Source: Escherichia phage HermannAdler_Bas98. From it: DNA of 64,000 nucleotides. Numbering within the stretch: the stretch's first letter is position 1; each line of letters opens with the position of its first letter. Location of the stretch: the sequence record PQ850608.1; one strand, 5' to 3'. The translations under genes and the position numbers were made by a program. Shown piece after piece: positions 6,404 to 43,890 of this stretch. The notes beneath the pieces are model-generated. The model made no database searches. It saw only the letters and a program-made list of their open reading frames with translations, and was not told the DNA's origin.

Positions 6404-6579
6404 AGAGGAAGTTATGCAAAAGATTATTCAGTCACGTTATGTTAAAGTGCGAAATATTAATTGCAACTCTTTGCTTTCTTGGAAATGGGCCGTTTACGAC
6501 TCGATGTTAATTGGCGTTTTAGTTGCAGGAGTGCTATTTAATATTCACTGAATTCATCGGCAAAGGATTGCCGCGAGTT

Positions 6580-6870
6580 TTATACGTATAATGACGTATC
6601 ATCCGTATCAAGTAAGTTATTGTTTTCAAAAGAATCTTACGGATGATACGGATGATACGCGTTGCCGCCGTACTATATAGGAATTCAAATAAATTAATTT
6701 AAAATTATATATCTAATTTAATTTTATTTTTTTATAAACTCTTATATATGAAAAGTATCCGTATCATCCGTATCATCCGTAGCACACCAGTGATAGCGCG
6801 GCTTATACACCGATACGGATAAAAATACGCCTCATTTTATCCGTATCATCCGTATCACACTAATAAAGGC
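6580..6870. repeat. Iteron array flanking AT-rich spacer (copy A of a duplicated element)
   Basis: Multiple direct and inverted copies of CCGTATCAT / GGATGATACGGATGATACG around an AT-rich core (AATTAATTTAAAATTATAT...TTTTTTT); homologous to 58900-59170. Confidence 0.7.
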
Positions 6871-6914
6871 GCGGCTATATTGGTTGTTATACATATTCAA
6901 ACCATAATTATTGT

Positions 6915-6943
6915 TTGCCTAAGTTTTTTTCATTAGATATAAT
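6915..6943 (+). promoter_or_regulatory. Sigma70-like promoter TTGCCT-N17-TATAAT upstream of scaffold/capsid genes
   Basis: -35 TTGCCT 6915-6920, 17-nt spacer, -10 TATAAT 6938-6943; RBS GAGGGTGG then ATG 6973. Confidence 0.6.
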
Positions 6944-6972
6944 ACACAATACTTATTTGAGGGTGGATGCGA

Positions 6973-16712: not shown

Positions 16713-17272
16713 TGGACTTCGTTTCGATTCTGCTTTCTGGTCAATCTTTGACCATAACGAATGAGTCAACAGGTCTTCCTGTCTGGACAAGGCTTTCACC
16801 TGTTTCTGCAGAAATAACATCCCCAGCAGAAACAACTCAATTCCCTCTTGCTGGTACAGCCATGCAGGTTGTCGAAGTATCAAGCACGTCATCAGTAAGC
16901 AATTTACAGGCGGCAAAGGTTGTAATGCCAGCCCATATGGCGTTAAACGTAATTTGCAATGACCAGTCTACAATTGAAAATATCATAAATTCATTTGATG
17001 ATGACGAAGTCACATTTTCAATAACTTCACGAAGCATCATTGCCAGTAAAATGTCGATGTCCGACGTTGAAATAACCCAGTCAGAAGAAAACTTGAATGG
17101 AGTCTCAATAGTAATAACTTTCGAGCAAACGTCATTTAGCATTCAAGGAAGCTTCGACCCTAAACAATCTGCAGACGAATCATCAAATGGTGTTGCTATT
17201 AAAGAACCAGTCAGTTTGACTACAACTGTGAGTTCGTTATATAATAAAATAAAATCAACAGTAGGAATATAA
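16712..17272 (+). CDS. Hypothetical tail protein
   Basis: 186-aa ORF, coupled. Confidence 0.45.
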   Translation: MDFVSILLSGQSLTITNESTGLPVWTRLSPVSAEITSPAETTQFPLAGTAMQVVEVSSTSSVSNLQAAKVVMPAHMALNVICNDQSTIENIINSFDDDEVTFSITSRSIIASKMSMSDVEITQSEENLNGVSIVITFEQTSFSIQGSFDPKQSADESSNGVAIKEPVSLTTTVSSLYNKIKSTVGI

Positions 17273-21279: not shown

Positions 21280-21308
21280 TTGCTTATAGACTCCTTATAG
21301 ATTATAAT
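21280..21308 (+). promoter_or_regulatory. Sigma70-like promoter TTGCTT-N17-TATAAT with inverted repeat overlapping downstream RBS
   Basis: -35 TTGCTT 21280-21285, -10 TATAAT 21303-21308; inverted repeat AGACTCCTTATA / TATAAGGAGTCT pairs promoter spacer with the AAGGAG RBS of the next gene. Confidence 0.5.
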
Positions 21309-21332
21309 TTGTTGATCAGATATAAGGAGTCT

Positions 21333-22061
21333 ATGATGGCAGAAAAGTTAACCCAACTTACAAGCCCCAACCAAACTGACAAATCAAGTATGTTTGCCGC
21401 GCTGCAGGGAATGCTGGACCGTGGCAAGTATACCACTGACGGCATGATTCCTGCACAAGTAATATCTTATGACCGCAAACAGAATTTAGCAGTCATAAAG
21501 CCTGTTATTCATTTCGTAAGTCTTGATGATAAACCAGTGGAGCGTCAACCACTGGTGTCAATTCCTGTATTGGCAATCGGCGGCGGCGGCTTCGTAATCA
21601 ACTTTCCTCTGAAAGAGGGTGATTTGGGCTGGATATTCGCTGGCGACCGCGAGTTGTCGACATTCCTTGAAGAATTGAAGCCGACCGCGCCTACCAATGG
21701 CCGCGCGAAAACTTTCGCTGATGGACTGTTCATACCGGATGTATTTCGAAAATACACCATAAGCGGAGAGGATGCAGGCTCAATGGTGATCCAGTCACTC
21801 AGCGGCGCTGTCCGCATTGCATTAAGTGATGACTCGATAAACATAACTGCATCGGCTGGAGTAAATGTGAAAACACCAATAACCACTATCGACCAACAAT
21901 TGATAGTTAATGGAAAGGCAACGTTCAATGGTGGTATAGAAGGGAAAGAAGGAACGACGGCAACGCTTCCGACTGGTACAACAATCGGCGGCACAAATGT
22001 ATCCACTCACGGTCACATAGGTAACGGACCTGGAAACAGAACTGGGGATATGATAGAATGA
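21333..22061 (+). CDS. Baseplate spike / gpV-like protein (putative)
   Basis: Start at Met9 behind RBS AAGGAG; Gly-rich beta-type sequence; position upstream of J-like gene. Confidence 0.45.
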   Translation: MMAEKLTQLTSPNQTDKSSMFAALQGMLDRGKYTTDGMIPAQVISYDRKQNLAVIKPVIHFVSLDDKPVERQPLVSIPVLAIGGGGFVINFPLKEGDLGWIFAGDRELSTFLEELKPTAPTNGRAKTFADGLFIPDVFRKYTISGEDAGSMVIQSLSGAVRIALSDDSINITASAGVNVKTPITTIDQQLIVNGKATFNGGIEGKEGTTATLPTGTTIGGTNVSTHGHIGNGPGNRTGDMIE

Positions 22062-28526: not shown

Positions 28527-28558
28527 AAAAGGCCCATATGGGCCTTTGTTTATTTTAC
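28527..28558. terminator. Bidirectional rho-independent terminator between convergent blocks
   Basis: AAAAGGCCCATATGGGCCTTTGTTTATTTT: perfect GC-rich stem flanked by A-run and T-run. Confidence 0.75.
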
Positions 28559-29396: not shown

Positions 29397-29424
29397 AAAG
29401 AAAAGCCGGAGATTTCCGGCTTTA
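29397..29424 (-). terminator. Rho-independent terminator for minus-strand operon
   Basis: AGCCGGAGATTTCCGGCT hairpin with T-run on minus strand (A-run on plus). Confidence 0.6.
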
Positions 29425-31578: not shown

Positions 31579-31635
31579 GATGCACCAGATAAATAAAAGG
31601 CCGCCAATCGGCAGCCTTGTTGATTTGATTGTCGA

Positions 31636-32555: not shown

Positions 32556-33113
32556 TTACTTTTTGCTTTTAGGCAAGGTTATTTTAGCTTCTTTGTATTC
32601 AAAAACGCTAATATCTTCACTAACTGGATTGCCTGCTTCCAGCTGTTCTTTTACAAACGACTTCAGTGTAGCAGAATGAACGCCTTGTTTCAATGTGGCT
32701 TCAACACCATCTTCACGCAGCGCGGCAACAATCTCTTGCGCCTGTTCGATTTCTTCGCGACCGAACTCAGCCGTGACGCTGGACTTGATCAGGCCGCCGT
32801 AACCGTTGTTGACAAGCCAATCGAAAACTTTTAATTCGTTTTCTTTCTTGATCGAAGCATTCACCTTGGACTCGACCTTGATTTTGGTCTTGTCCTCAAG
32901 CTTGATCTCAGACACGCCAAGCTCCTCCATAACGCCAGGAAGCAGAACAGTTTTGATTTCACTGATGCGCTGCTTTTGCATATCAGCTTCATCTTCAAGC
33001 TCTGTCAAAGCCTCTTGGCGTTCTGCCAGTTCAGATACTAAGCGCGCAAGGCGCTCTTGAATGCTCTCAGGAGCGACCTGCGGCAAATCATCTTCCCAAT
33101 TAATATTGCTCAT
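32556..33113 (-). CDS. Hypothetical protein with N-terminal coiled coil
   Basis: 185 aa; between SSB-like and helicase genes; no confident motif. Confidence 0.45.
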   Translation of the reverse strand: MSNINWEDDLPQVAPESIQERLARLVSELAERQEALTELEDEADMQKQRISEIKTVLLPGVMEELGVSEIKLEDKTKIKVESKVNASIKKENELKVFDWLVNNGYGGLIKSSVTAEFGREEIEQAQEIVAALREDGVEATLKQGVHSATLKSFVKEQLEAGNPVSEDISVFEYKEAKITLPKSKK

Positions 33114-33373
33114 ATTTTACCTTCTTGCATTAACCCTTCAACACGGGTCATTTGATAACGTTCAGGTTTCCAAGCAGCCAAAGCCTTCTCAGCGCCTTTT
33201 AAGGTTTTATACGCCTTGATGCCAGGCATAATAACGGTATTCACCCCAGCACCGTTGCCATGATCAAACTCTTTAACAACGCGAAACATTCCGTCAATTT
33301 CTTTGACCAAAAGACGTTTGAAAGCGATTGCGCCAGTAGCTTCATTTTTGTAACGTTCAAGGATGCGTACCAT
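33110..33373 (-). CDS. Hypothetical small protein
   Basis: 87-aa ORF, ATGA-type overlap with downstream gene, RBS AGAGGA. Confidence 0.45.
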   Translation of the reverse strand: MVRILERYKNEATGAIAFKRLLVKEIDGMFRVVKEFDHGNGAGVNTVIMPGIKAYKTLKGAEKALAAWKPERYQMTRVEGLMQEGKI

Positions 33374-33387
33374 TTTGTATTCCTCTG

Positions 33388-33417
33388 TTTCGTTTCGATG
33401 AAGTAATTATGACTCAT
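33388..33417 (-). promoter_or_regulatory. Conserved inverted-repeat element upstream of RBS (copy 1)
   Basis: GTTTCGATGAAGTAATTATGACTCATC, closely similar to element at 40537-40570; sits just 5' of the RBS of gene 33110-33373 on the minus strand. Confidence 0.45.
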
Positions 33418-33447
33418 CTTCCGTGACAAGTCAAATTATTTTTGATA

Positions 33448-34971
33448 TTAATTCATCTTTTTGCCGTCGAGGATGTGATCAGCAAGCATAGATTTCATGC
33501 TCAGTGAACGCTGAATTTCTTCGTCGATGGTATCAACACCAATAAAATCAACATACAACACGCTTGATTTGGTGCCGATGCGGTGATTTCGGTCTTCGGA
33601 TTGCTTGCGCAACTCGTTGTCATAGTTGCAAGAATAATAGATTGCCAAGTCAGCGGCGGTAAGCGTGATTCCGATGCCTGCCGCAGCTGCGTGACACACC
33701 AACACTTGCGTTCCACCGTTCTCGACTGTGTTTTTCTGGAAGTCATCAATCAAGAACTCGCGCTGCTCTTTTGATGTTTCACCGTTGTACGCACCAGTGA
33801 CCACGCCTTCAGACTCAAGCCAATCCTTAATCTGGTTCATCTCTTCCTTAAAGATGGCCCACACGATGAATTTGCGCTCTGGGTCGTCTTCCAGCACCCC
33901 TTCCACATAGTCCTTAAAGGCCGTGAATCGTGGGTTGTCTTCCATGTAGACCATCTCATCATACACCTTAACAAAGCCTGATGTCACCTGCTTCATCTTG
34001 GTGCGAGATGCGATCATCTCAAACTTAACGTTTTCTTCTTCGCCTTTGTACTCCATCAAATAGTTGTACTCATTCTTGAGTTCATCGTAGACATCGCGCT
34101 GCTTAGGCGACAACTCGAAGTCGATAAACTTGTACACCTTCTCTGGAAGGTCCGGCAAGTATTCCGCTTTTGTCGCGCGGAAATAGTGCGGCTCCATCAG
34201 CCGGATAAGCTTGTCAAGGTTTTTGTACATCGGTCGACCAAACTGGTCTTTGCGCGGCACTTGCGGAATGCCATAACCGTTGCCGCCGATTTTCTTGAGA
34301 ATGGCCTGCATCTCTGGGTCGTGCGCTTCAAGTAGAACTGTGAATTCAGAGTTGAATGCACGGAACGATTTGGTGCCAAGCAAGCCAGCTTCAAGGAAGT
34401 GATATTGCATGTAAATATCAGCAGGCGAGCGTGGCAGCGGCGTACCAGAAAGGATTCGACGGGCCTTTGCCAGCCGTCCCAATTCCACAACCTTGATGGA
34501 GCGTTTGGCTGTGTTATTTTTGATACGCGTCGATTCATCAATGATCATCAAACAGCGGTATTTCTTCAAGACCGACTCAATGTGTTGATAACCGACTGGT
34601 GTGTTGACGGTGTCAATGTTGAATGAGAAGATGCGCGCAGGCACTTCGCCTTCAGGGTAGTGATCAGCAAACATCTTCTCCCAAAGCGCCTTGCCCTTTT
34701 TAGTCTTCATCTTGTCATTGCCGCGCCAGTAATGCCCAATCCACTTGATGGAAAGGTGCTCTGGCGCTTCACGACGAATCCAGTTTGAGTGGACACCGTT
34801 TGGAGCAATAACAACCATGGCATCAAACGCGCCAGCAGTGAAGTGCTTTTCAAACTCTGCCAAAGCAGTCCAGGTTTTGCCAAGACCCTGCTCCATAAAA
34901 TAAGCAAAGTATTTTCTGCGGCCTGCTTTATCAAGCGCCAATAATTGGTGGCGCATTCCTTGTGTTTTCAT
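33448..34971 (-). CDS. SNF2-family helicase / ATPase
   Basis: Walker A GLGKT (EQGLGKTW), DExx box MIIDESTR, 507 aa. Confidence 0.8.
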   Translation of the reverse strand: MKTQGMRHQLLALDKAGRRKYFAYFMEQGLGKTWTALAEFEKHFTAGAFDAMVVIAPNGVHSNWIRREAPEHLSIKWIGHYWRGNDKMKTKKGKALWEKMFADHYPEGEVPARIFSFNIDTVNTPVGYQHIESVLKKYRCLMIIDESTRIKNNTAKRSIKVVELGRLAKARRILSGTPLPRSPADIYMQYHFLEAGLLGTKSFRAFNSEFTVLLEAHDPEMQAILKKIGGNGYGIPQVPRKDQFGRPMYKNLDKLIRLMEPHYFRATKAEYLPDLPEKVYKFIDFELSPKQRDVYDELKNEYNYLMEYKGEEENVKFEMIASRTKMKQVTSGFVKVYDEMVYMEDNPRFTAFKDYVEGVLEDDPERKFIVWAIFKEEMNQIKDWLESEGVVTGAYNGETSKEQREFLIDDFQKNTVENGGTQVLVCHAAAAGIGITLTAADLAIYYSCNYDNELRKQSEDRNHRIGTKSSVLYVDFIGVDTIDEEIQRSLSMKSMLADHILDGKKMN

Positions 34972-35390
34972 GACAATTCCTCTAAATACTTGATGATGTG
35001 ATGAATAGTTCCCTTCACGATTATCTCACGTTGAACGTCTGCAGTATTATAACGCTTTAATTCAATAGAAGGGTGGACTAAATAAAACATCTTCTCAGAA
35101 TCAACCTTAAGCAAAACGAATGATGGGTATCGCCAATCATTCCACGAAGAAAGGAAGCTGCACTGTCCTTTCTCAAATGCATTTCTGAAAGGTGCAGTGG
35201 TGGCCCTTGCAGGCCACGATTCAAAGAACTTCATTTCAAGCCAAAAGCCGCGCCCTTTCCGGTTGGTGCCGATTACGTCCGGCACGCCATCACCAGTCAT
35301 TGACTCGATTCGTTGAAGCTTCAATACTGATTCTGAATGCTTCTTCAAAGGTACGAATATGTATTTCTGCTCACGGTTATTTGTTGCCAT
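34968..35390 (-). CDS. VRR-NUC domain nuclease (PD-(D/E)xK)
   Basis: GDGVPDVIG ... GRGFWLEMK matches the D...ExK active-site pattern of VRR-NUC; 140 aa. Confidence 0.6.
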   Translation of the reverse strand: MATNNREQKYIFVPLKKHSESVLKLQRIESMTGDGVPDVIGTNRKGRGFWLEMKFFESWPARATTAPFRNAFEKGQCSFLSSWNDWRYPSFVLLKVDSEKMFYLVHPSIELKRYNTADVQREIIVKGTIHHIIKYLEELS

Positions 35391-38274
35391 CTGGATACAC
35401 CTGTTTGATCACGTCAACGATGAACATGTCAATGCCTTCAAGCTTACGACCTTTCATCAGGAAGAATGCGCCGTTCCCGACGTTTTCAGCAATGTACTTC
35501 CCGTACTTCTGGAACTTCTCTGGACGAATCCTGAAGCGCATTGGCGAGTCGGTCGAGTCGTCTTTGCACATAAGGTCAATGAACTGAGTCTCAAGCTTGT
35601 TTCCATACTGGTCAAACTCTGCGTAGCGGCCATCAGCTTGAAGACCCTTTTTAAGTTTGCCGTGCTTTGTATAAATGCCGCGCTCAAGACGTTTACGGAT
35701 GCGTGTTGCTTCGTTCTCGTCCGCAAGCACTTTCTTTGTCAACTTGCCGATTACTATTGCGCGCTCGTCATCACCGACTTCCTTCATCTGGCGTATTGAA
35801 GCGCCGGACGTCACACCAATCAGATACGGGTCATTATACGCCCAGCCAAACTTTGTGTGCATCTCTGTAAGGTCGCCGTATTTGACTTCAGCATTGGCCA
35901 ATGCGTCCTTTTGCTTCTGCGTTAAGGTTCCGGCTTCACGCGCTTCGATGTACTTCATCGCCTTCACCATTCCGTACCCTTTCGCGTTCATAATGCCGCC
36001 GATTAGCTTTCCGTTCGCGATTGTCCAGTTCATTGAAGAGTGATCAGGGTCGATTGGAACGTAATCCACGCCTTCCTTCGCAAGTTCACGTAATATCGCA
36101 ATCGTCTGGTCTTCGTCCTTAGCAGCGCGTAAGCAGGCTGCGGCAAATTCCAACGGGTAGTGTCGCTTAAGCCACAATGTCCAGTAGGTCACGACCGCGT
36201 ATGACACGGAGTGTGACTTGTTAAAGCCCCATGACCCGAACGTAGCCATCGCTTGCCAAAGCTTTCTTGCATCCGCTTCCGGTACTCCGTTATTGATTGC
36301 GCCTGCAACAAAGTCCTCGCCAAGCTTGTTAAAGTATTCTTCACCCTTACGGCCTGACATCGCCTTACGCACAGCTGACGTTTTCGCCCAGTCAAATGAA
36401 CCAATCTCTTTAACCACGGCCATGATTTGCTCTTGGTAAAGAAACACGCCGTAAGTCTCTTTCAAGTACGGCTCAAGCTGCGGCACGTCGTACTCAATCG
36501 GCGCACGTCCTGCCGCGCGTTCAATGTATTTCTGGGCCATACCGGATGACAACGGGCCAGGTCGACCCAAAGCTGTCAGGTTGTCGATTTTGTTAAAGTT
36601 GTCGACGTGCACAAAGTTTGTTACTGAGCGTACAGCGTCACCTTCAAACTGGAAGATGCCTGACATCTTGTTTTCGTTAAGAATGTCAAGTACGCTTTGA
36701 TCATCAAGCTTGATTCCGTAGAGCGTTTCAGCATCAATAACGCCTGTATCAGAAATAATGCCGAGAGTACGAAGGCCCAGCGCATCAAGCTTCAAAAGGT
36801 TAAGGTATTCGCTGTCAGGCTTATCGATTTGTGCAATCCCTTCCGCAGTTACAGTACAGTAATCAGAGATTGGGTCATTACACACAATGATTCCCGCTGC
36901 GTGAACACCTGTGTGAGACGGGTGAATCTCAAGGTCACCCATGCAACGCGCGGCGTCAGGATATTTCGCCACGAACTCTTGGCCCGTGGTCGTTGTTGCA
37001 AAGGTATCCTCCAGGCCGTGGCCATAACGGGCGTCACCTGACGAGTATTCAAGCAGTGCGTTTTTAATGTTGGCCGTTTCGTGGTATCCAATGTTGAACT
37101 TCTTACCAACCTGCGCCATTACTGAGTTGGCCTTAAGCGTGTTGATGTTGCCAAGCTTTGCAACATTCATTTCGCCGTATTTCTCTTTAAGATAATCAAA
37201 CACCATATAGCGTTTGGTATCTTCAAAGTCGATGTCGATGTCAGGGAGGTCGGCGCGGCTTACGTCGATGAATCGGGCAAACAGCAGCTTATACGGGATT
37301 GGGTCCACTTCCGTGATGCCGAGGCAATAGCAAACAAGTGAACCAGCCGATGAGCCGCGAGCAGGACCGACGAGCATTTTTGTTTTTGCGAATCGTACAA
37401 GGTCCGCTACTACCAGAAAGTATGAGTCGAAATCTTTCAGCTGAATCTGGTGAATTTCTTCGTTGAAGCGGTCCTCATATTCCTGAGTCCATTCTTTGAT
37501 GTGACCTGCTTTGAGACGGTACTCCATCCCCTCACGCGCAAGCTTTACCATATCACCAGCAAGGTGGATAATCGGTGCCTTGCGTAATTTCAGGTCAAGT
37601 CCGACTATGCCGTTTGCTATGTCAACAGCATTGGCCGTTGCCTGATTCAGCTCATCTTCCGTCAAGATGCCTTTAAGCTGTTTGCGCAAGTCTTCCGCGT
37701 CAACGATGCAGTGCGGCTTGACCGTGTCGCGCACTTCCCAAGCATAAGCAAAGTCAACGTGCTCAGGTGAAGGCATGTGGTTGTATCCGGTTAAAACCAG
37801 CGGCCTTCCACCGCTACGATGAGCCAATGCCTGGCGCTTTGCCAAAAGGAACGATGATGGGTTGACGTCTATATAGTCGTAGTCCTCTGGCCGCAGCAAC
37901 TCCACGGCACCGCCACAGAATTTAACGACGCCATCGAGCGCCCCGAACTCTGCACGGGTAAGTCCACCGCGCTGCGTTGCAAGTGTTGTAGCGTTGTAAA
38001 AAGATTTTAAGTCAAGGGCCAATATCCAAGCCTTCGGTTTGAATCCCTTTTTCGGGTCCGCATCAGGGTCGATGATTGGAATCTCCATTCCAAACATAGG
38101 CTTAATATCATTTTTCTGGCATTCCTTTTCCCAGCGAACGTGACCCCATGTATTGTTATCAACTAATGCCGCGACTTCGCAGCCCAACTCTTTGAGCCGT
38201 GCTATAATTTCAGGATGCCGTCCATATACTTCTTTGAACGTGTAACCGCTGCGAACTCTCAATTGTGGAAACAT
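35377..38274 (-). CDS. dnaE: DNA polymerase III alpha subunit (DnaE-type)
   Basis: 965 aa; PHP N-terminus; GPARGSSAGSLVCYCLGITEVDPI matches DnaE conserved block. Confidence 0.9.
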   Translation of the reverse strand: MFPQLRVRSGYTFKEVYGRHPEIIARLKELGCEVAALVDNNTWGHVRWEKECQKNDIKPMFGMEIPIIDPDADPKKGFKPKAWILALDLKSFYNATTLATQRGGLTRAEFGALDGVVKFCGGAVELLRPEDYDYIDVNPSSFLLAKRQALAHRSGGRPLVLTGYNHMPSPEHVDFAYAWEVRDTVKPHCIVDAEDLRKQLKGILTEDELNQATANAVDIANGIVGLDLKLRKAPIIHLAGDMVKLAREGMEYRLKAGHIKEWTQEYEDRFNEEIHQIQLKDFDSYFLVVADLVRFAKTKMLVGPARGSSAGSLVCYCLGITEVDPIPYKLLFARFIDVSRADLPDIDIDFEDTKRYMVFDYLKEKYGEMNVAKLGNINTLKANSVMAQVGKKFNIGYHETANIKNALLEYSSGDARYGHGLEDTFATTTTGQEFVAKYPDAARCMGDLEIHPSHTGVHAAGIIVCNDPISDYCTVTAEGIAQIDKPDSEYLNLLKLDALGLRTLGIISDTGVIDAETLYGIKLDDQSVLDILNENKMSGIFQFEGDAVRSVTNFVHVDNFNKIDNLTALGRPGPLSSGMAQKYIERAAGRAPIEYDVPQLEPYLKETYGVFLYQEQIMAVVKEIGSFDWAKTSAVRKAMSGRKGEEYFNKLGEDFVAGAINNGVPEADARKLWQAMATFGSWGFNKSHSVSYAVVTYWTLWLKRHYPLEFAAACLRAAKDEDQTIAILRELAKEGVDYVPIDPDHSSMNWTIANGKLIGGIMNAKGYGMVKAMKYIEAREAGTLTQKQKDALANAEVKYGDLTEMHTKFGWAYNDPYLIGVTSGASIRQMKEVGDDERAIVIGKLTKKVLADENEATRIRKRLERGIYTKHGKLKKGLQADGRYAEFDQYGNKLETQFIDLMCKDDSTDSPMRFRIRPEKFQKYGKYIAENVGNGAFFLMKGRKLEGIDMFIVDVIKQVYPDGNK

Positions 38275-38816
38275 TATTTACTCCAGATGTCATATACGCC
38301 AATTTGTTGGCAGACTTTGTGCAGTAATATTACGTCGTCTAATGCACGGTGCTTCTGTTCATATTTTCCGAAATATAATTCATACAGCTCTTGAAGCTTA
38401 ACTCTTCGGCCAAAAATAGGCAAGGTTTGCTCGACCGTACAAACGTTTATTTCTGGGAAATTAACATCATCAAGTGTAAGTCCTTCGCGCTGTAATGCAT
38501 AATCAAGAATGTTTTTATCGAACGCATGGTTGTGCGCGATAGTGGCATCAGTTTTCTTGAAGATTTCTTTTAGCTGTGGAACGAAGTTGATGAATGGTGG
38601 ATTGCACTCAAGGTCTTCATTGGTTAATCCGGTAATCTTTGTAATGATTTCTTCAATCACAATTTCAGGATTAATTATGAATTCAAACGTTTCAAGAATC
38701 TCTTTGCCGTCCGTCAACAGGCCTGCAAATTCAATAGGGCGCGGCTGCATTCCAAGCGGCGCTTTCGGGTGCACGGTCAGTCCGGTTGTTTCGAAGTCAT
38801 AAGGGAGAAATAACAC
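38274..38816 (-). CDS. DnaQ-like 3'-5' exonuclease
   Basis: Exo I motif FDFETTGL; GTG start behind strong RBS AGGAGG; overlaps dnaE start. Confidence 0.7.
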   Translation of the reverse strand: MLFLPYDFETTGLTVHPKAPLGMQPRPIEFAGLLTDGKEILETFEFIINPEIVIEEIITKITGLTNEDLECNPPFINFVPQLKEIFKKTDATIAHNHAFDKNILDYALQREGLTLDDVNFPEINVCTVEQTLPIFGRRVKLQELYELYFGKYEQKHRALDDVILLHKVCQQIGVYDIWSK

Positions 38817-38827
38817 ATTAGCCTCCT

Positions 38828-38853
38828 ACAAAAAGGCCGCCCATTAGGACGGC
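38828..38853 (-). terminator. Hairpin terminator downstream of 38871-39422 (minus strand)
   Basis: GGCCGCCCATTAGGACGGCC hairpin followed on minus strand by T-run. Confidence 0.5.
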
Positions 38854-38870
38854 CACAGATTCACGATTCG

Positions 38871-39422
38871 TTATACAGTGTACGGAGTACCTTCTTGATT
38901 CAAGCGCACGATAAACTTCAAATCAACGCCGATGATTTCACGCGTATCAAAGATCACATAGTTGTAACGACGTTGGCCAGCGATGTTTGGGTTGGTGTGA
39001 GAATCAGTTACGACTTCCTGTGCAACCTGAATGCCTTCTTCGCTAAAGAACTTACGCCATTCAGCAAGTTCAGCAGCAGTCACGTGCATACCAAGGTGGC
39101 TGACCTGATTATCGTGCGCATCGAGCATGTCGATGTTTTCATTAATCCAGTTGCAACCTTTTGTGTAGTCAAGGATTTCAAGCTCAAGAGGCTTACCAGC
39201 GCCGCCATCAGTACCGTTGCCAGCCTGATAGTTGAAGCGCAAGTCAGCTTCATTGGTGCAATCGCCGCGCTGACCTTTAAAGTCATCAGCTTCAAATACG
39301 CGACCAGTAGCAACAACGTGATCATGGAACCACTCTGTCAGGCCGATTTTAGCCAGGAAGTCCTGAGCGCGTTGAGCATCTGGAATGGACAGGGCGATTT
39401 GTTCAATTTTAAAATGTGGCAT
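38871..39422 (-). CDS. Hypothetical protein, VOC/glyoxalase-like fold suspected
   Basis: 183 aa; N-terminal MPHFKIEQIALSIPD...FLAKIGL pattern reminiscent of VOC enzymes; weak. Confidence 0.4.
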   Translation of the reverse strand: MPHFKIEQIALSIPDAQRAQDFLAKIGLTEWFHDHVVATGRVFEADDFKGQRGDCTNEADLRFNYQAGNGTDGGAGKPLELEILDYTKGCNWINENIDMLDAHDNQVSHLGMHVTAAELAEWRKFFSEEGIQVAQEVVTDSHTNPNIAGQRRYNYVIFDTREIIGVDLKFIVRLNQEGTPYTV

Positions 39423-39442
39423 TTTGTTTCCTTAATTAAATA

Positions 39443-39658
39443 TTATTGATTAATTACTGTGTTGTCTTCGTCCTGTTTCTTTTCAGGAGCGGGTGTGACA
39501 ACTTCAAATTTAGGTTTGGGTAATTCACCTTTAGCGCCTGGGACTTCAACGACAATCTTTTTGTCAGGCTCAACAGGATTTGGAACTTCAAATTTGATTG
39601 TGTATCCTAATACAACAAGAAGCACTAAACCGATTACCGCTACCCAGGCTTTGTTCAT
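39443..39658 (-). CDS. Small membrane-anchored Pro/Lys/Glu-rich protein
   Basis: N-terminal TM (AWVAVIGLVLLVVLGY) followed by Pro-rich extended segment; 71 aa. Confidence 0.45.
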   Translation of the reverse strand: MNKAWVAVIGLVLLVVLGYTIKFEVPNPVEPDKKIVVEVPGAKGELPKPKFEVVTPAPEKKQDEDNTVINQ

Positions 39659-39660
39659 GG

Positions 39661-39828
39661 TTATTCGCCCTTATCTTTGCCTTCTATGGAATAAGTCTCA
39701 ATGGAACCGACGCGCTCGTGGTTAACCTTTGCGTTTTCGATTCTTATTACTTCAAATCCAACGCCTTCTTGATCAATCTTCACTTCTGCCACGTCGCCAA
39801 TCACTTCTACAACAACTTTGATAGTCAT
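39661..39828 (-). CDS. Small hypothetical protein (about 55 aa, below track length cutoff)
   Basis: Read by eye as MTIKVVVEVIGDVAEVKIDQEGVGFEV...; fills gap between flanking genes; coordinates approximate within 1-2 nt. Confidence 0.3.
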   Translation of the reverse strand: MTIKVVVEVIGDVAEVKIDQEGVGFEVIRIENAKVNHERVGSIETYSIEGKDKGE

Positions 39829-39831
39829 GAT

Positions 39832-40515
39832 TTATTTCCCAAATGGAATATCAGTACCAGACATAAAGCGCCATGCGCCCGTAATTAAGATATGGCGAAT
39901 GAAGTCAGCAATTACTTGCGGCTCAGTCTCCAATCCATTCATCAATGCCTTTTTCTGGTATTCAGCGGCGTATTCAGGAGTCCATCCGCGAGTCGCGCAA
40001 ACAGCATCTTCAATCTGTTTAGACATACCAGTGCCGCGCAACTTGTTAGGACTAATAGAGAATACCGTGATGCCGTATTTAGGCGTAAGCTCGTGAGCCA
40101 TCTGCTTGCTAATCATAAGCGCAGCAGCCTTGGATGCATTATAACACAAGCTGGACGTCATAGGAATATGCGCAGCGTTAGAAACGATATTGATCACAAA
40201 ACCTTTGTTGTCGATAAGACTTTTCAGCGCGGCCTGAGTCGTGTTGACGAAAGAGAAGGCGTTGGTGTGCATAACGCGATTGAACTCTTCGTAGTTAACA
40301 TCTTCGAACCAGTTGTTGGAGTTGACGCCAGCGCAGTTGATCAAGCCTTCTACATCATATGGGCTTAAAATTTCTTTCATCTGTTTAGCGTCGCGGACGT
40401 CATATCCGTATGCTGAATCGATTCCAAGCACGTTATGACCGTAAGCGCCAAGGGTGTCAAAAATAGATTTACCAAGACCGGAATTGGAACCTGTTACAAC
40501 AATTACTTTTTTCAT
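39832..40515 (-). CDS. Short-chain dehydrogenase/reductase (SDR) family oxidoreductase
   Basis: Rossmann motif TGSNSGLG near N-terminus and catalytic YNASK (YxxxK); 227 aa. Confidence 0.8.
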   Translation of the reverse strand: MKKVIVVTGSNSGLGKSIFDTLGAYGHNVLGIDSAYGYDVRDAKQMKEILSPYDVEGLINCAGVNSNNWFEDVNYEEFNRVMHTNAFSFVNTTQAALKSLIDNKGFVINIVSNAAHIPMTSSLCYNASKAAALMISKQMAHELTPKYGITVFSISPNKLRGTGMSKQIEDAVCATRGWTPEYAAEYQKKALMNGLETEPQVIADFIRHILITGAWRFMSGTDIPFGK

Positions 40516-40536
40516 TTATTTATCCTTTTTGGACTT

Positions 40537-40570
40537 CGTTTCGATGAGGTAAATATAACTCATCGAAACG
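40537..40570 (-). promoter_or_regulatory. Conserved inverted-repeat element upstream of RBS (copy 2)
   Basis: Perfect 12-bp inverted repeat CGTTTCGATGAG...CTCATCGAAACG with 10-nt loop; just 5' of SDR gene RBS on the minus strand. Confidence 0.5.
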
Positions 40571-40580
40571 CACAAGTAAA

Positions 40581-41456
40581 CTATTTATTGAAATTAATAT
40601 TATGGGTGTTAACAAGACGTTCACACATGGCGCTATAAACACCATCGTCGTGTATTGAGTCTTCGTGCTTCAGGCCGCTGATTGCGAAGCGTGTAAGCTT
40701 GACAATCTTAAGCTCGAACAGATGCCACATGTGGTAGTCTTCCGGTGTCTTCAAAGTTACGCCATTAGGGAACAACACCTGCATAACCTGACCTACCATC
40801 ACAGCGTTATCGCCATAAACGGCATTGCGCTCACGGAAGGTCGCGGCCATCGCATCAAGAATATCAGCAGCGGTTGCTGGGGCTTGTTGTTCAACTTCAA
40901 CAAGTTTAGTCTCTTCTTTCCCTGTTGCACTTGGATCAACTGCTAATTGTTGCACCACTTCACCTGCCTTGCAAAGATTAAATGTAAAGGCGATTTTATT
41001 TTGCGCCATGGAATTATAGTGCAAAGCTTCTTCTTGCATCCGCGCGAGTACGTCTTGTCGGTCGTCGAATACATTGATGATTCGATAATCGCCGTGCCGC
41101 AAAGCGTGCGATAGCCATGCAGATTTCATAATAGTTGATGGACGTTTGTCGCCATAGTCTCTCATCTTGATTGTAAATTCATCAAAAGGGAAAACATTGT
41201 CCAGACGTTCAAAAGTCACTTGTCTGTATTTTTCTGGCCTTGCAGTCCAATATTCAACCGCCTCACCGCGAAGAGATGCCGACTCTACTGCTGATGCAAT
41301 GTGAGGATAGAACTGATCATAACCAATACCGCTGTGATAGTCATCATAGTCTGACAACGGACCTGCCACCTTGATGCGGTCTAAGCGCCAACGGTCATCA
41401 AACAGCGTTCCGTCAAGGTCGAATACGTTTAAGATTTCGCTGTTTTTAATGCTCAT
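40581..41456 (-). CDS. HAD-superfamily phosphatase with C-terminal extension
   Basis: N-terminal motif I FDLDGTLFD (DxDGT); 291 aa, C-terminal half unassigned. Confidence 0.6.
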   Translation of the reverse strand: MSIKNSEILNVFDLDGTLFDDRWRLDRIKVAGPLSDYDDYHSGIGYDQFYPHIASAVESASLRGEAVEYWTARPEKYRQVTFERLDNVFPFDEFTIKMRDYGDKRPSTIMKSAWLSHALRHGDYRIINVFDDRQDVLARMQEEALHYNSMAQNKIAFTFNLCKAGEVVQQLAVDPSATGKEETKLVEVEQQAPATAADILDAMAATFRERNAVYGDNAVMVGQVMQVLFPNGVTLKTPEDYHMWHLFELKIVKLTRFAISGLKHEDSIHDDGVYSAMCERLVNTHNINFNK

Positions 41457-42722: not shown

Positions 42723-42787
42723 TTTCGTTTCCTCTATGAGTTCTGCTTCAATGATTAAAGTATACGCCCATTGAAGCAGAAAGCAAA

Positions 42788-43863: not shown

Positions 43864-43890
43864 AAAAAGACCCACAACAAGTGTGGGTCA
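43864..43890 (-). terminator. Rho-independent terminator (minus strand)
   Basis: GACCCACAACAAGTGTGGGTC hairpin, T-run on minus strand (AAAAAA on plus). Confidence 0.6.

Follow-up and report, generated by a model that had tools for sequence, protein, structure and literature searches.

Two short stretches of near-identical sequence on the minus strand of Escherichia phage HermannAdler_Bas98 (sequence record PQ850608.1; the 64,000 nucleotides analysed here are called the window) raise the question of what kind of element they represent. A previous sequence-only reading described them as a conserved inverted repeat in front of the ribosome-binding sites of two genes and proposed an intercistronic processing site, a translational operator or a middle-promoter element. 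Our analysis suggests that both copies are probably internal sigma70-type promoters, used by the host RNA polymerase, within the replication cluster of the genus Wifcevirus, and that they overlap with hairpins which can form in read-through transcripts only. As it was flagged, the element is ordinary, namely the core of two host-type promoters whose class has already been mapped experimentally in a related phage. Seen directly are the anatomy of the sequence, the homology to mapped starts, the covariation and the restriction of G.U pairs to the sense strand. For the window itself, we infer where transcription starts, that the sites would be active with E. coli sigma70, and what hairpin and leader do.

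The two copies and their probable promoter layout

Between positions 33000 and 41000, the window is 94-97% identical to the Escherichia phages WFC, ECML-117, FEC19 and Bas99-101 of the Wifcevirus genus, which comprises E. coli myophages with genomes of about 68 kb, and it is collinear with the annotated relative Bas100. Distant kin of the Wifceviruses are the PB1-like phages of Pseudomonas (Pbunavirus, with 14-1 and LBL3) and the Serratia phage MTx, with helicases 50-56% and polymerases 60-66% identical. Here, the minus strand from about 28.5 to 46.4 kb forms a block of replication and nucleotide-metabolism genes, in which both copies were found again where they had been noted:

about 28.5-46.4 kb, minus strand: genes for a Dda-like helicase, thymidylate synthase, polynucleotide kinase/phosphatase (PNK) and a FabG-like reductase
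about 28.5-46.4 kb, minus strand, continued: genes for DNA polymerase and an exonuclease subunit, a helicase, a MazG-like pyrophosphatase and a ligase
33418..33391, minus strand: copy at site 1, GATGAGTCATAATTACTTCATCGAAACG
40564..40537, minus strand: copy at site 2, GATGAGTTATATTTACCTCATCGAAACG

A degenerate 28-mer allowing up to three mismatches has exactly two matches in the window, compared with 0.00 expected from 100 shuffles. The copies are identical at 27 of the 30 core bases and at 35 of 48 bases from -35 to +13. The described placement directly 5' of a Shine-Dalgarno sequence and an ATG, in a short gap between minus-strand genes, was also confirmed. This gap spans 74 nt at site 1, from the helicase stop to an open reading frame (ORF) of 87 amino acids (aa), and 65 nt at site 2, from the PNK stop to the FabG-like ORF. 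The suggested search for further copies yielded none beyond these two, either in the window or in complete Wifcevirus genomes. BLAST of the complete genomes returned three places, which are site 2, a palindromic self-match of site 2, and site 1; since the self-match does not represent an additional copy, each genome contains two.

Read on the minus strand, each copy follows the same plan. An AT-rich stretch is succeeded by a -35 hexamer, 17 bp, a -10 hexamer and six further bases, of which the last two are TC; then come ATCGAAACGAA, a Shine-Dalgarno sequence and the ATG. This arrangement suggests that each copy is a sigma70-type promoter with a short leader. Site 1 reads ATCAAAAATAAT-TTGACT-17 bp-CATAAT-TACTTC-ATCGAAACGAAAC-AGAGGA-ATG and site 2 reads TTTCAATAAATAG-TTTACT-17 bp-TATATT-TACCTC-ATCGAAACGAAG...AAGGA-ATG. 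Both are called by a sigma70 consensus scan with a 17-bp spacer, site 1 with 10 of 12 and site 2 with 9 of 12 hexamer matches, and both -10 hexamers have A at position 2 and T at position 6. In the following, discriminator denotes the six bases that separate the -10 from the start. Common to both copies is a block made up of the proximal spacer and the -10, then the 6-nt discriminator, which is rich in pyrimidines and has TC at its end, and finally A(+1)TCGAAACGAA. From the predicted starts at 33399 and 40545, leaders of 26 and 30 nt extend to the ATG. The individual parts are as follows:

33435..33446, minus strand: site 1, AT-rich, UP-element-like stretch ATCAAAAATAAT, just upstream of the -35 and after the helicase stop at 33448-33450
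33429..33434, minus strand: site 1, -35 hexamer TTGACT; its 17-bp spacing to the -10 is kept in relatives
33411..33432, minus strand: site 1, spacer hairpin GACTTGTC / acggaa / GATGAGTC, which begins in the 3' part of the -35 and ends at the first -10 base, seen by folding and covariation
33406..33411, minus strand: site 1, -10 hexamer CATAAT, aligned with ...GATGCGGCATAAT of promoter P025 of phage 14-1
33387..33399, minus strand: site 1, predicted start A 33399 and leader ATCGAAACGAAAC, placed after the mapped starts P006, P009 and P028 of 14-1
33381-33386 and 33371-33373, minus strand: site 1, Shine-Dalgarno sequence AGAGGA and ATG
33110..33373, minus strand: 87-aa ORF putatively served by site 1, followed by a DUF7307 gene at 32556-33113
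40581-40593, minus strand: site 2, AT-rich stretch within the 3' end of the PNK gene
40575..40580, minus strand: site 2, -35 hexamer TTTACT, abutting the PNK stop TAG at 40581-40583
40559..40570, minus strand: site 2, 5' arm of the repeat, CGTTTCGATGAG, in the promoter spacer and upstream of the predicted start
40552..40557, minus strand: site 2, -10 hexamer TATATT, within the 10-nt loop of the inverted repeat
40537..40548, minus strand: site 2, 3' arm of the repeat, CTCATCGAAACG, comprising the last three bases before the start and the first nine transcribed
40534..40545, minus strand: site 2, predicted start A 40545 and leader ATCGAAACGAAG, placed by homology
40523-40527 and 40513-40515, minus strand: site 2, Shine-Dalgarno sequence AAGGA and ATG
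39832..40515, minus strand: gene of a FabG-like short-chain dehydrogenase, putatively served by site 2

Downstream of the helicase, site 1 (TTGACT-17-CATAAT, start A 33399) would drive two genes, the 87-aa ORF and that of DUF7307; downstream of PNK, site 2 (TTTACT-17-TATATT, start A 40545) would drive the FabG-like gene. As far as their sequence tells, both look like plain host sigma70-type promoters and not like a MotA-type design. The proposal of a middle-promoter element was therefore right with regard to the promoter, given the hexamers 17 bp apart and a counterpart of site 1 in 14-1 which is a mapped primary start, and found no support with regard to the middle class.

The inverted repeat, in turn, has to be described differently for the two sites. 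A perfect 12-bp stem is indeed present at site 2 (40559-40570 / 40537-40548), but its counterpart at site 1 amounts to only 6 bp (GATGAG versus TTCATC), one G.T pair included. Due to this, the conserved inverted repeat is full-grown at site 2 alone, and what the copies really share is the -10, the discriminator and the first ~12 transcribed bases. Neither stem is followed by a U-tract, as had been stated.

Two observations on the neighbouring genes may be added. The 87-aa ORF downstream of site 1 has no Pfam match; it is perhaps related to a 76-aa ORF downstream of P028 in LBL3, a likeness seen by eye only. Between the glyoxalase-like and the FabG-like genes, two small ORFs of 71 and 55 aa are located at 39443-39828 (minus strand). 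Both ORFs are missing from Bas100 and Bas101 (a difference of ~310 bp), and Bas99 has one small ORF in their place; a slot for variable accessory genes thus directly follows the site 2 promoter.

Conservation and mapped start sites in related phages

Relatives with a DNA polymerase 45-66% identical, which belong to MTx-like, PB1-like and metagenomic lineages, keep the -35, the 17-bp spacing and the -10 at both positions, and the remaining sequence diverges. Among 80 metagenomic relatives of the helicase, many lineages carry TTGCCG-17-CATAAT right after the helicase stop. Within Wifcevirus, the core is near-invariant, and spacer position 33422 is free among C, G and T.

For phage 14-1, primary 5' ends have been determined by ONT-cappable-seq (Putzeys et al., 2024; PMC10914365). 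Its promoter P025 starts at 40195 on the minus strand, has the upstream sequence AATATGTAAATCAGTAGCCGTATCAAGGAAGATGCGGCATAATATCTACT and was assigned to the sigma70 class (bioRxiv 10.1101/2023.10.13.562163, Table S3). Both by position, downstream of the PB1-like helicase, and by sequence (...GTAGCCGTATCAAGGAAGATGCGGCATAATATCTACT), P025 is the counterpart of site 1, with GGAAGATGAGTCATAAT versus GGAAGATGCGGCATAAT in the alignment of the two. The -35/17/-10 arrangement, GGAAGATGnGnCATAAT and a spacer hairpin are found in both. Furthermore, the upstream regions of P006, P009 and P028 end at an A (bioRxiv 10.1101/2023.10.13.562163, Table S3). This A is followed by TCGAAACG, as seen for P009 in the row of the 14-1 terminator T004 and for all three in the close relative LBL3, so that these promoters start at the A of C[A]TCGAAACG. 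The same is predicted for sites 1 and 2, and A 33399 and A 40545 were chosen as starts because a TCGAAACG-type sequence follows the discriminator as it does at the mapped 14-1 starts. Four other sigma70-like promoters of 14-1 were active without phage factors in reporters, in E. coli as well as in P. aeruginosa (PMC10914365). In contrast to the window, 14-1 has another host and belongs to another genus, and the site 2-type repeat is weak at P028 (GATCAGG versus CCTCATC, 6 of 7 paired). A keyword search of the main text of Putzeys et al. (2024) returned nothing on a shared leader or on promoter hairpins.

Hairpins over the probable promoters and rival explanations

As RNA, the 12-bp stem of site 2 has a folding energy of -21.7 kcal/mol (z = -5.6). 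Perfect repeats of at least 12 bp with short loops occur four times in the window, with ~0.1 expected by our own estimate. In three cases, the repeat encloses the -10 of a promoter-like site of the TTGnnn-17-TAnnnT type, namely at site 2 (12 bp, loop of 10 nt), at 42.7 kb (13 bp, 15 nt) and on the plus strand at 21.3 kb (14 bp, 21 nt). Among 400 promoter-like matches in the window, for which the best repeat is usually 4-6 bp, these three stand out with 12-14 bp. The two additional promoters are:

42741..42787, minus strand: third, diverged class member TTTGCT-17-TATACT, predicted start A 42752, leader ATTGAAGCAGAAC
21280..21334 (to 21347), plus strand: analogous design TTGCTT-17-TATAAT in the structural module, upstream of a baseplate gene

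The 42.7-kb promoter reads TATACT-TTAATC-ATTGAAGCAGAAC and has P028 of 14-1 as its positional counterpart; its -10 is bracketed by a 13-bp perfect repeat (42769-42781 / 42741-42753). At 21.3 kb, the -10 falls into the loop of a 14-bp perfect repeat (21286-21299 / 21321-21334), whose 3' arm serves the baseplate gene as Shine-Dalgarno sequence. Here, partition-function folding gives an unpaired probability of this Shine-Dalgarno sequence of 0.00 in the read-through RNA versus 0.80 in the promoter's own transcript. In another lineage (L101/L103), the orthologous promoter has unrelated arms (ATCTCTCCCGGTG / CACCGGGAGAGAT) and keeps the design.

The fourth repeat lies apart from these promoters. 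Within a non-coding gap of 415 bp (6552-6966), a 9-mer (ATCCGTATC / GATACGGAT) that points either way makes up an iteron-like array at 6760-6870. To this array belong the 13-bp perfect inverted repeat, whose arms lie at 6812-6824 and 6835-6847, and GCGCGGCT(T)ATA, present twice. The array at ~6.8 kb could be a replication origin or a regulator-binding array.

Site 1 carries a hairpin of its own, with an 8-bp stem in the spacer (GACTTGTC/acggaa/GATGAGTC), which differs from the repeat of site 2. Its covariation was examined in 12 orthologous promoters, aligned without gaps and anchored on the hexamers, with one sequence (L028) added by hand. In this set, 89.8% of the cells are paired versus 30-42% in slid registers, both sides have changed in 7 of 9 pairs, and the observed score was reached by none of 500 shuffles. 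Several lineages carry C(UUCG)G tetraloops at this locus, and six sequences have a U.G pair where the opposite strand would have a C.A mismatch. At site 2, the only arm variants among sequenced Wifceviruses are CTCATTGAAACG (Bas99) and CTCATCGAAATG (Bas101), both changes of C to T opposite G, by which G.U pairs stay in the sense RNA. LBL3 has an 11-bp repeat around a -10 (TCGATGAGGTG/gctgaggtatagt/CACCTCATCGA) with a core common to site 2; a search through the protein downstream of it returned three loci. In the copies of T1-like phages (Drexlerviridae), the spacer pairs with the discriminator and the arms covary (GGGGTA/TACCCC, GGGATA/TATCCC, GGGTGT/ACACCC). For ATCGAAACG-type promoters compared with shuffles, the mean z is -2.37 with p <= 0.05 in 62%, a score that is no more than indicative, as the sequences are related. 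Hairpins embedded in promoters and kept by compensatory change are real, and no description of them was found in the searchable literature.

Similar pairings were seen elsewhere. In the metagenomic contig L037 (Ga0318542_10002348), whose helicase is 43% identical, TTGACA-18-GATTAT lies downstream of the helicase gene and its -10 is bracketed by a 14-bp perfect repeat (GTTCAGTTCTATGA / TCATAGAACTGAAC), which corresponds to the site 2 design at the site 1 position. In phage YuA, the phage-specific promoters P006, P008, P010, P012 and P013 (CTTTACTTCTTCGG...CACTATACTT) are flanked by complementary segments varying by copy (GGGGC/GCCCC, GCGGG/CCCGC, CCAC/GTGG), which may pair around the promoter box (10.1101/2023.10.13.562163, Table S3).

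At site 2, the 5' arm (40559-40570) precedes the predicted start 40545, and likewise the site 1 arm at 33425-33432 precedes 33399; this order was seen in every case. This implies that a promoter's own transcript lacks the hairpin and that the stem is present only in read-through RNA or in the DNA. At site 2, the 12-bp stem would have the spacer on one side and the discriminator with the initial transcribed bases on the other, the -10 staying in the loop; at site 1, the 8-bp stem would fill the spacer. The stems start 6-15 nt past the upstream stop codon. A role as RNA-level intercistronic boundary element of the read-through transcript would fit, in which the hairpin acts as an exonuclease barrier or as a processing site parting the upstream from the downstream message. 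In read-through RNA, the hairpin may be the processing site of the sequence-only reading. The stems measure 12 bp (site 2) and 8 bp (site 1), compared with about two helical turns of RNase III sites of the T7 R1.1 type, and Rfam at gathering score gives no match in the whole window. An intrinsic terminator was considered and rejected, since AAGTCCAAAAAGG (site 2) and ATAATTACTTC (site 1) follow the stems instead of a U-tract and both sites are missing from the terminator scan.

Several points weigh against the interpretation as promoters with read-through-only hairpins. No Wifcevirus transcriptome turned up, and the start sites of the window are therefore placed by homology. Site 2 has no mapped counterpart, as the 14-1 table shows no start just downstream of the PNK gene. 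The consensus scan is weak by itself, with 32 promoter-like sites in the region where chance would give 26. Moreover, sigma70 recognition needs less sequence than the two copies have in common. The covariation sets are small and consist of related sequences partly picked after inspection. The idea of hairpins in all promoters of this phage group was given up, as 25 sigma70-class sequences of 14-1 have a mean z of -0.30, like the other start-site classes; it is the ATCGAAACG class alone that is enriched in hairpins. With regard to the role of the hairpin, no termination site is mapped at P025, P028 or P006 in 14-1. For the Shine-Dalgarno sequence of site 2, the predicted unpaired probability amounts to 0.41 both in read-through RNA and in the promoter's own transcript; for site 1, the two values are 0.22 and 0.19, respectively. 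This equal predicted accessibility with or without the hairpin also speaks against the translational operator proposed for these sites; the hairpins of sites 1 and 2 are neither a translation switch nor a terminator. Finally, perfect palindromes fit roles at the DNA level equally well.

One such role would be a palindromic operator, where a dimeric repressor of phage or host binds the repeat over the -10 and shuts or times both promoters. The perfect 12-bp palindrome centred on the -10 of site 2, the sequence shared by both copies on either side of the -10, and the LBL3 repeat around a -10 with the same TCGATGAG/CTCATCGA core are in line with this. Nevertheless, site 1 has no left half-site (6 bp only, one G.T), and the arm variants are G.U-compatible on the sense strand only. 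The other bracketing repeats (42.7 kb, 21.3 kb and T1-like) have unrelated, compensating arms and loops of 4-21 nt, so that one protein reading a fixed sequence cannot account for the design, and we regard an operator as unlikely. Alternatively, supercoiling might extrude the repeat as a DNA cruciform and hold the -10 in the loop, which would tie the promoter to the superhelical state. The bracketing repeats of the window, perfect Watson-Crick stems of 12, 13 and 14 bp with AT-rich loops holding the -10, would suit such a switch, and as a precedent Horwitz and Loeb reportedly described in 1988 an E. coli promoter controlled by cruciform extrusion. However, loops of 10-21 nt are unfavourable for extrusion, the spacer-type hairpins have RNA-typical UUCG loops, and the variants in Bas99, Bas101, L165, L117 and L141 are G.T on the sense strand only, with an A.C mismatch opposite, which renders the cruciform very unlikely. 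Both cruciform and operator are weaker than the boundary element at the RNA level.

Could the element, on the contrary, act as RNA only, in a single long transcript that is processed there by RNase III or RNase E or stabilised by the hairpin, the hexamers being coincidental? A stable stem lacking a U-tract, 10-15 nt past the upstream stop codon, would suit this view, and covariation, UUCG tetraloops and G.U pairs indicate selection on the RNA. In the relatives, however, the hexamers and their 17-bp spacing are invariant and the stem sequences variable, and the 14-1 counterpart is a primary, cap-enrichable 5' end. Classical RNase III sites comprise ~20 bp, which the 12-bp stem does not reach. 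As sole function this explanation fails and has little probability, but as a second function it is compatible with the promoters. A last possibility is that recombination or gene conversion placed a copy of one promoter region over the other, in which case the additional similarity and the repeat would be functionless remnants. This would agree with only two copies per genome and with the mosaic-like core, in which GGAAGATGAG is common to site 1 and 14-1 P025, and AACGAAGT...AAAGGA to site 2 and MTx. It is highly improbable in view of the same leader at promoter starts in four separate phage groups, serving unrelated genes, of the LBL3 repeat with the same core, and of a Wifcevirus core that is near-invariant while spacer position 33422 varies freely. 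Internal sigma70-type promoters with overlapping hairpins consequently remain our preferred explanation.

A start-and-leader class and comparison with known systems

The leader leads beyond the Wifceviruses. A class pattern was defined in which a -10 is followed by 6-7 nt, the last of them a pyrimidine, and then by A(+1)TCGAAACG, with Shine-Dalgarno sequence and start codon coming within ~30 nt. Both sites belong to this class, and the pattern is exact at site 2 and at 42.7 kb and has one mismatch at site 1. The module is found at four sites in LBL3, two in MTx, one in the distant metagenomic contig L054 and seven in the T1-like phage Rogue1, as well as in 50 IMG/VR contigs, nearly all of 43-53 kb, which is the T1-like range. 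Judged from these sequences, the -10/start/leader module appears as a promoter class spanning Wifcevirus, Pbunavirus (14-1, LBL3), MTx and T1-like Drexlerviridae. The conservation of leader and start across unrelated phage groups is real, and no description of it was found in the searchable literature; a literature search with the leader motif as sequence string returned only primers, and the PB1-like comparison of Ceyssens et al. (2009) lies outside its coverage. Mimicry of a core E. coli promoter or leader was rejected, as the T1-like consensus matches 31 of 5,426 E. coli genomes, and only partially. An exact copy of 16 nt of the site 2 leader (ATCGAAACGAAGTCCA) lies at 16713-16728 (minus strand), antisense to a structural gene, with ~0.002 expected; there are no promoter hexamers upstream of it.

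In phage TLS, the 21-nt direct repeat aaATAGCACnnnTTGnTAAAA occupies 18 intergenic sites, and its function has been named an open question (German et al., 2024; PMC11447400). Both in Rogue1 and in T1-like contigs, aaATAGCACnnnTTGnTAAAA is located ~15-22 nt upstream of an extended -10 (TGnTATAGT), which is followed by 6 nt, ATCGAAACGAAAC and a Shine-Dalgarno sequence:

L116-L165 (T1-like contigs): loci with the 21-nt repeat
Rogue1 (L166), positions 528, 26462, 36796, 38167, 43694 and 44855: loci with the 21-nt repeat

Because of this placement 15-22 nt before the extended -10, the 21-nt repeat resembles the upstream box of the promoter class. The T1-like phages share the -10/start/leader module with the window, and often a hairpin pairing the spacer with the discriminator. 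In contrast, the Wifceviruses have a normal -35 at 17 bp where the 21-nt repeat would be, and aaATAGCACnnnTTGnTAAAA is absent from the window apart from one match with three mismatches in a coding region (2.7 expected).

More speculatively, and with the odds somewhat against it, the module may be an unrecognised compact cassette (-10, C/T-rich discriminator, A(+1)UCGAAACGAAAC, Shine-Dalgarno sequence) common to unrelated gamma-proteobacterial phages, the T1-like siphoviruses and the PB1-like, MTx and Wifcevirus myoviruses. In such a cassette, the first 9-13 transcribed bases would be under sequence-specific selection, and the leader could tag phage messages for recognition by a factor of host or phage, or could be a signal for initiation or promoter escape. 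The spacer, complementary to discriminator and leader, would form the read-through-only hairpin and thereby mark or insulate transcript isoforms. If this were true, it would also explain the neighbourhood of the 21-nt repeats between T1-like genes, which would act as upstream box of such promoters. Independently of the cassette, the leader is found at mapped 14-1 starts and at many T1-like sites beside the 21-nt repeat, which makes the open function of that repeat testable.

For the window, two unexplained repeats would become a transcription map with host-type promoters at ~43.8, 42.7, 40.5 and 33.4 kb, in which terminators lie at 43.87, 38.84 and 31.6 kb and the FabG-like accessory gene has its own promoter. 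The minus-strand cluster is split by canonical intrinsic terminators at 38835-38854, 43869-43889, 31597-31618 and 29402-29423 (minus strand), and a bidirectional terminator is present at the convergent junction with the endolysin gene (28528-28547). The exonuclease, polymerase and helicase genes begin right after the 38.84-kb terminator, with no recognisable promoter between. By means of hairpins that are kept by compensatory change and that a promoter's own transcript lacks, a compact phage genome could plausibly, and at little cost, separate read-through from local messages.

Known systems resemble this arrangement in part. Hairpins lacking a U-tract, which occur in one transcript isoform only or between cistrons, decide the fate of RNA in the sib retroregulation of phage lambda and at the early intergenic RNase III sites of T7. 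Those hairpins are longer, are proven RNase III substrates and do not overlap with the -10 of a promoter, which distinguishes them from the hairpins of the window. In 14-1 (T004/P009) and at 44.85 kb in Rogue1, a hairpin lies between the upstream promoter box and the -10 of a ATCGAAACG-class promoter, which is similar to the window. Unlike sites 1 and 2, however, a U-tract follows these hairpins, and at T004 termination has been mapped, 24 nt before P009 starts. For IS10 and IS50, Davis, Simons and Kleckner reportedly described in 1985 a fold-back inhibition, where the hairpin is present only in transcripts entering from outside. Sites 1 and 2 are like this IS10-type fold-back in that their 5' arm precedes their own start, a predicted one here, and differ from it, since the 3' arm of IS10 covers the ribosome-binding site and the accessibility at sites 1 and 2 is constant. 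It is the 21.3-kb promoter of the window that resembles the fold-back inhibition of IS10 also in this respect, with a Shine-Dalgarno sequence predicted to be hidden only in the read-through RNA.

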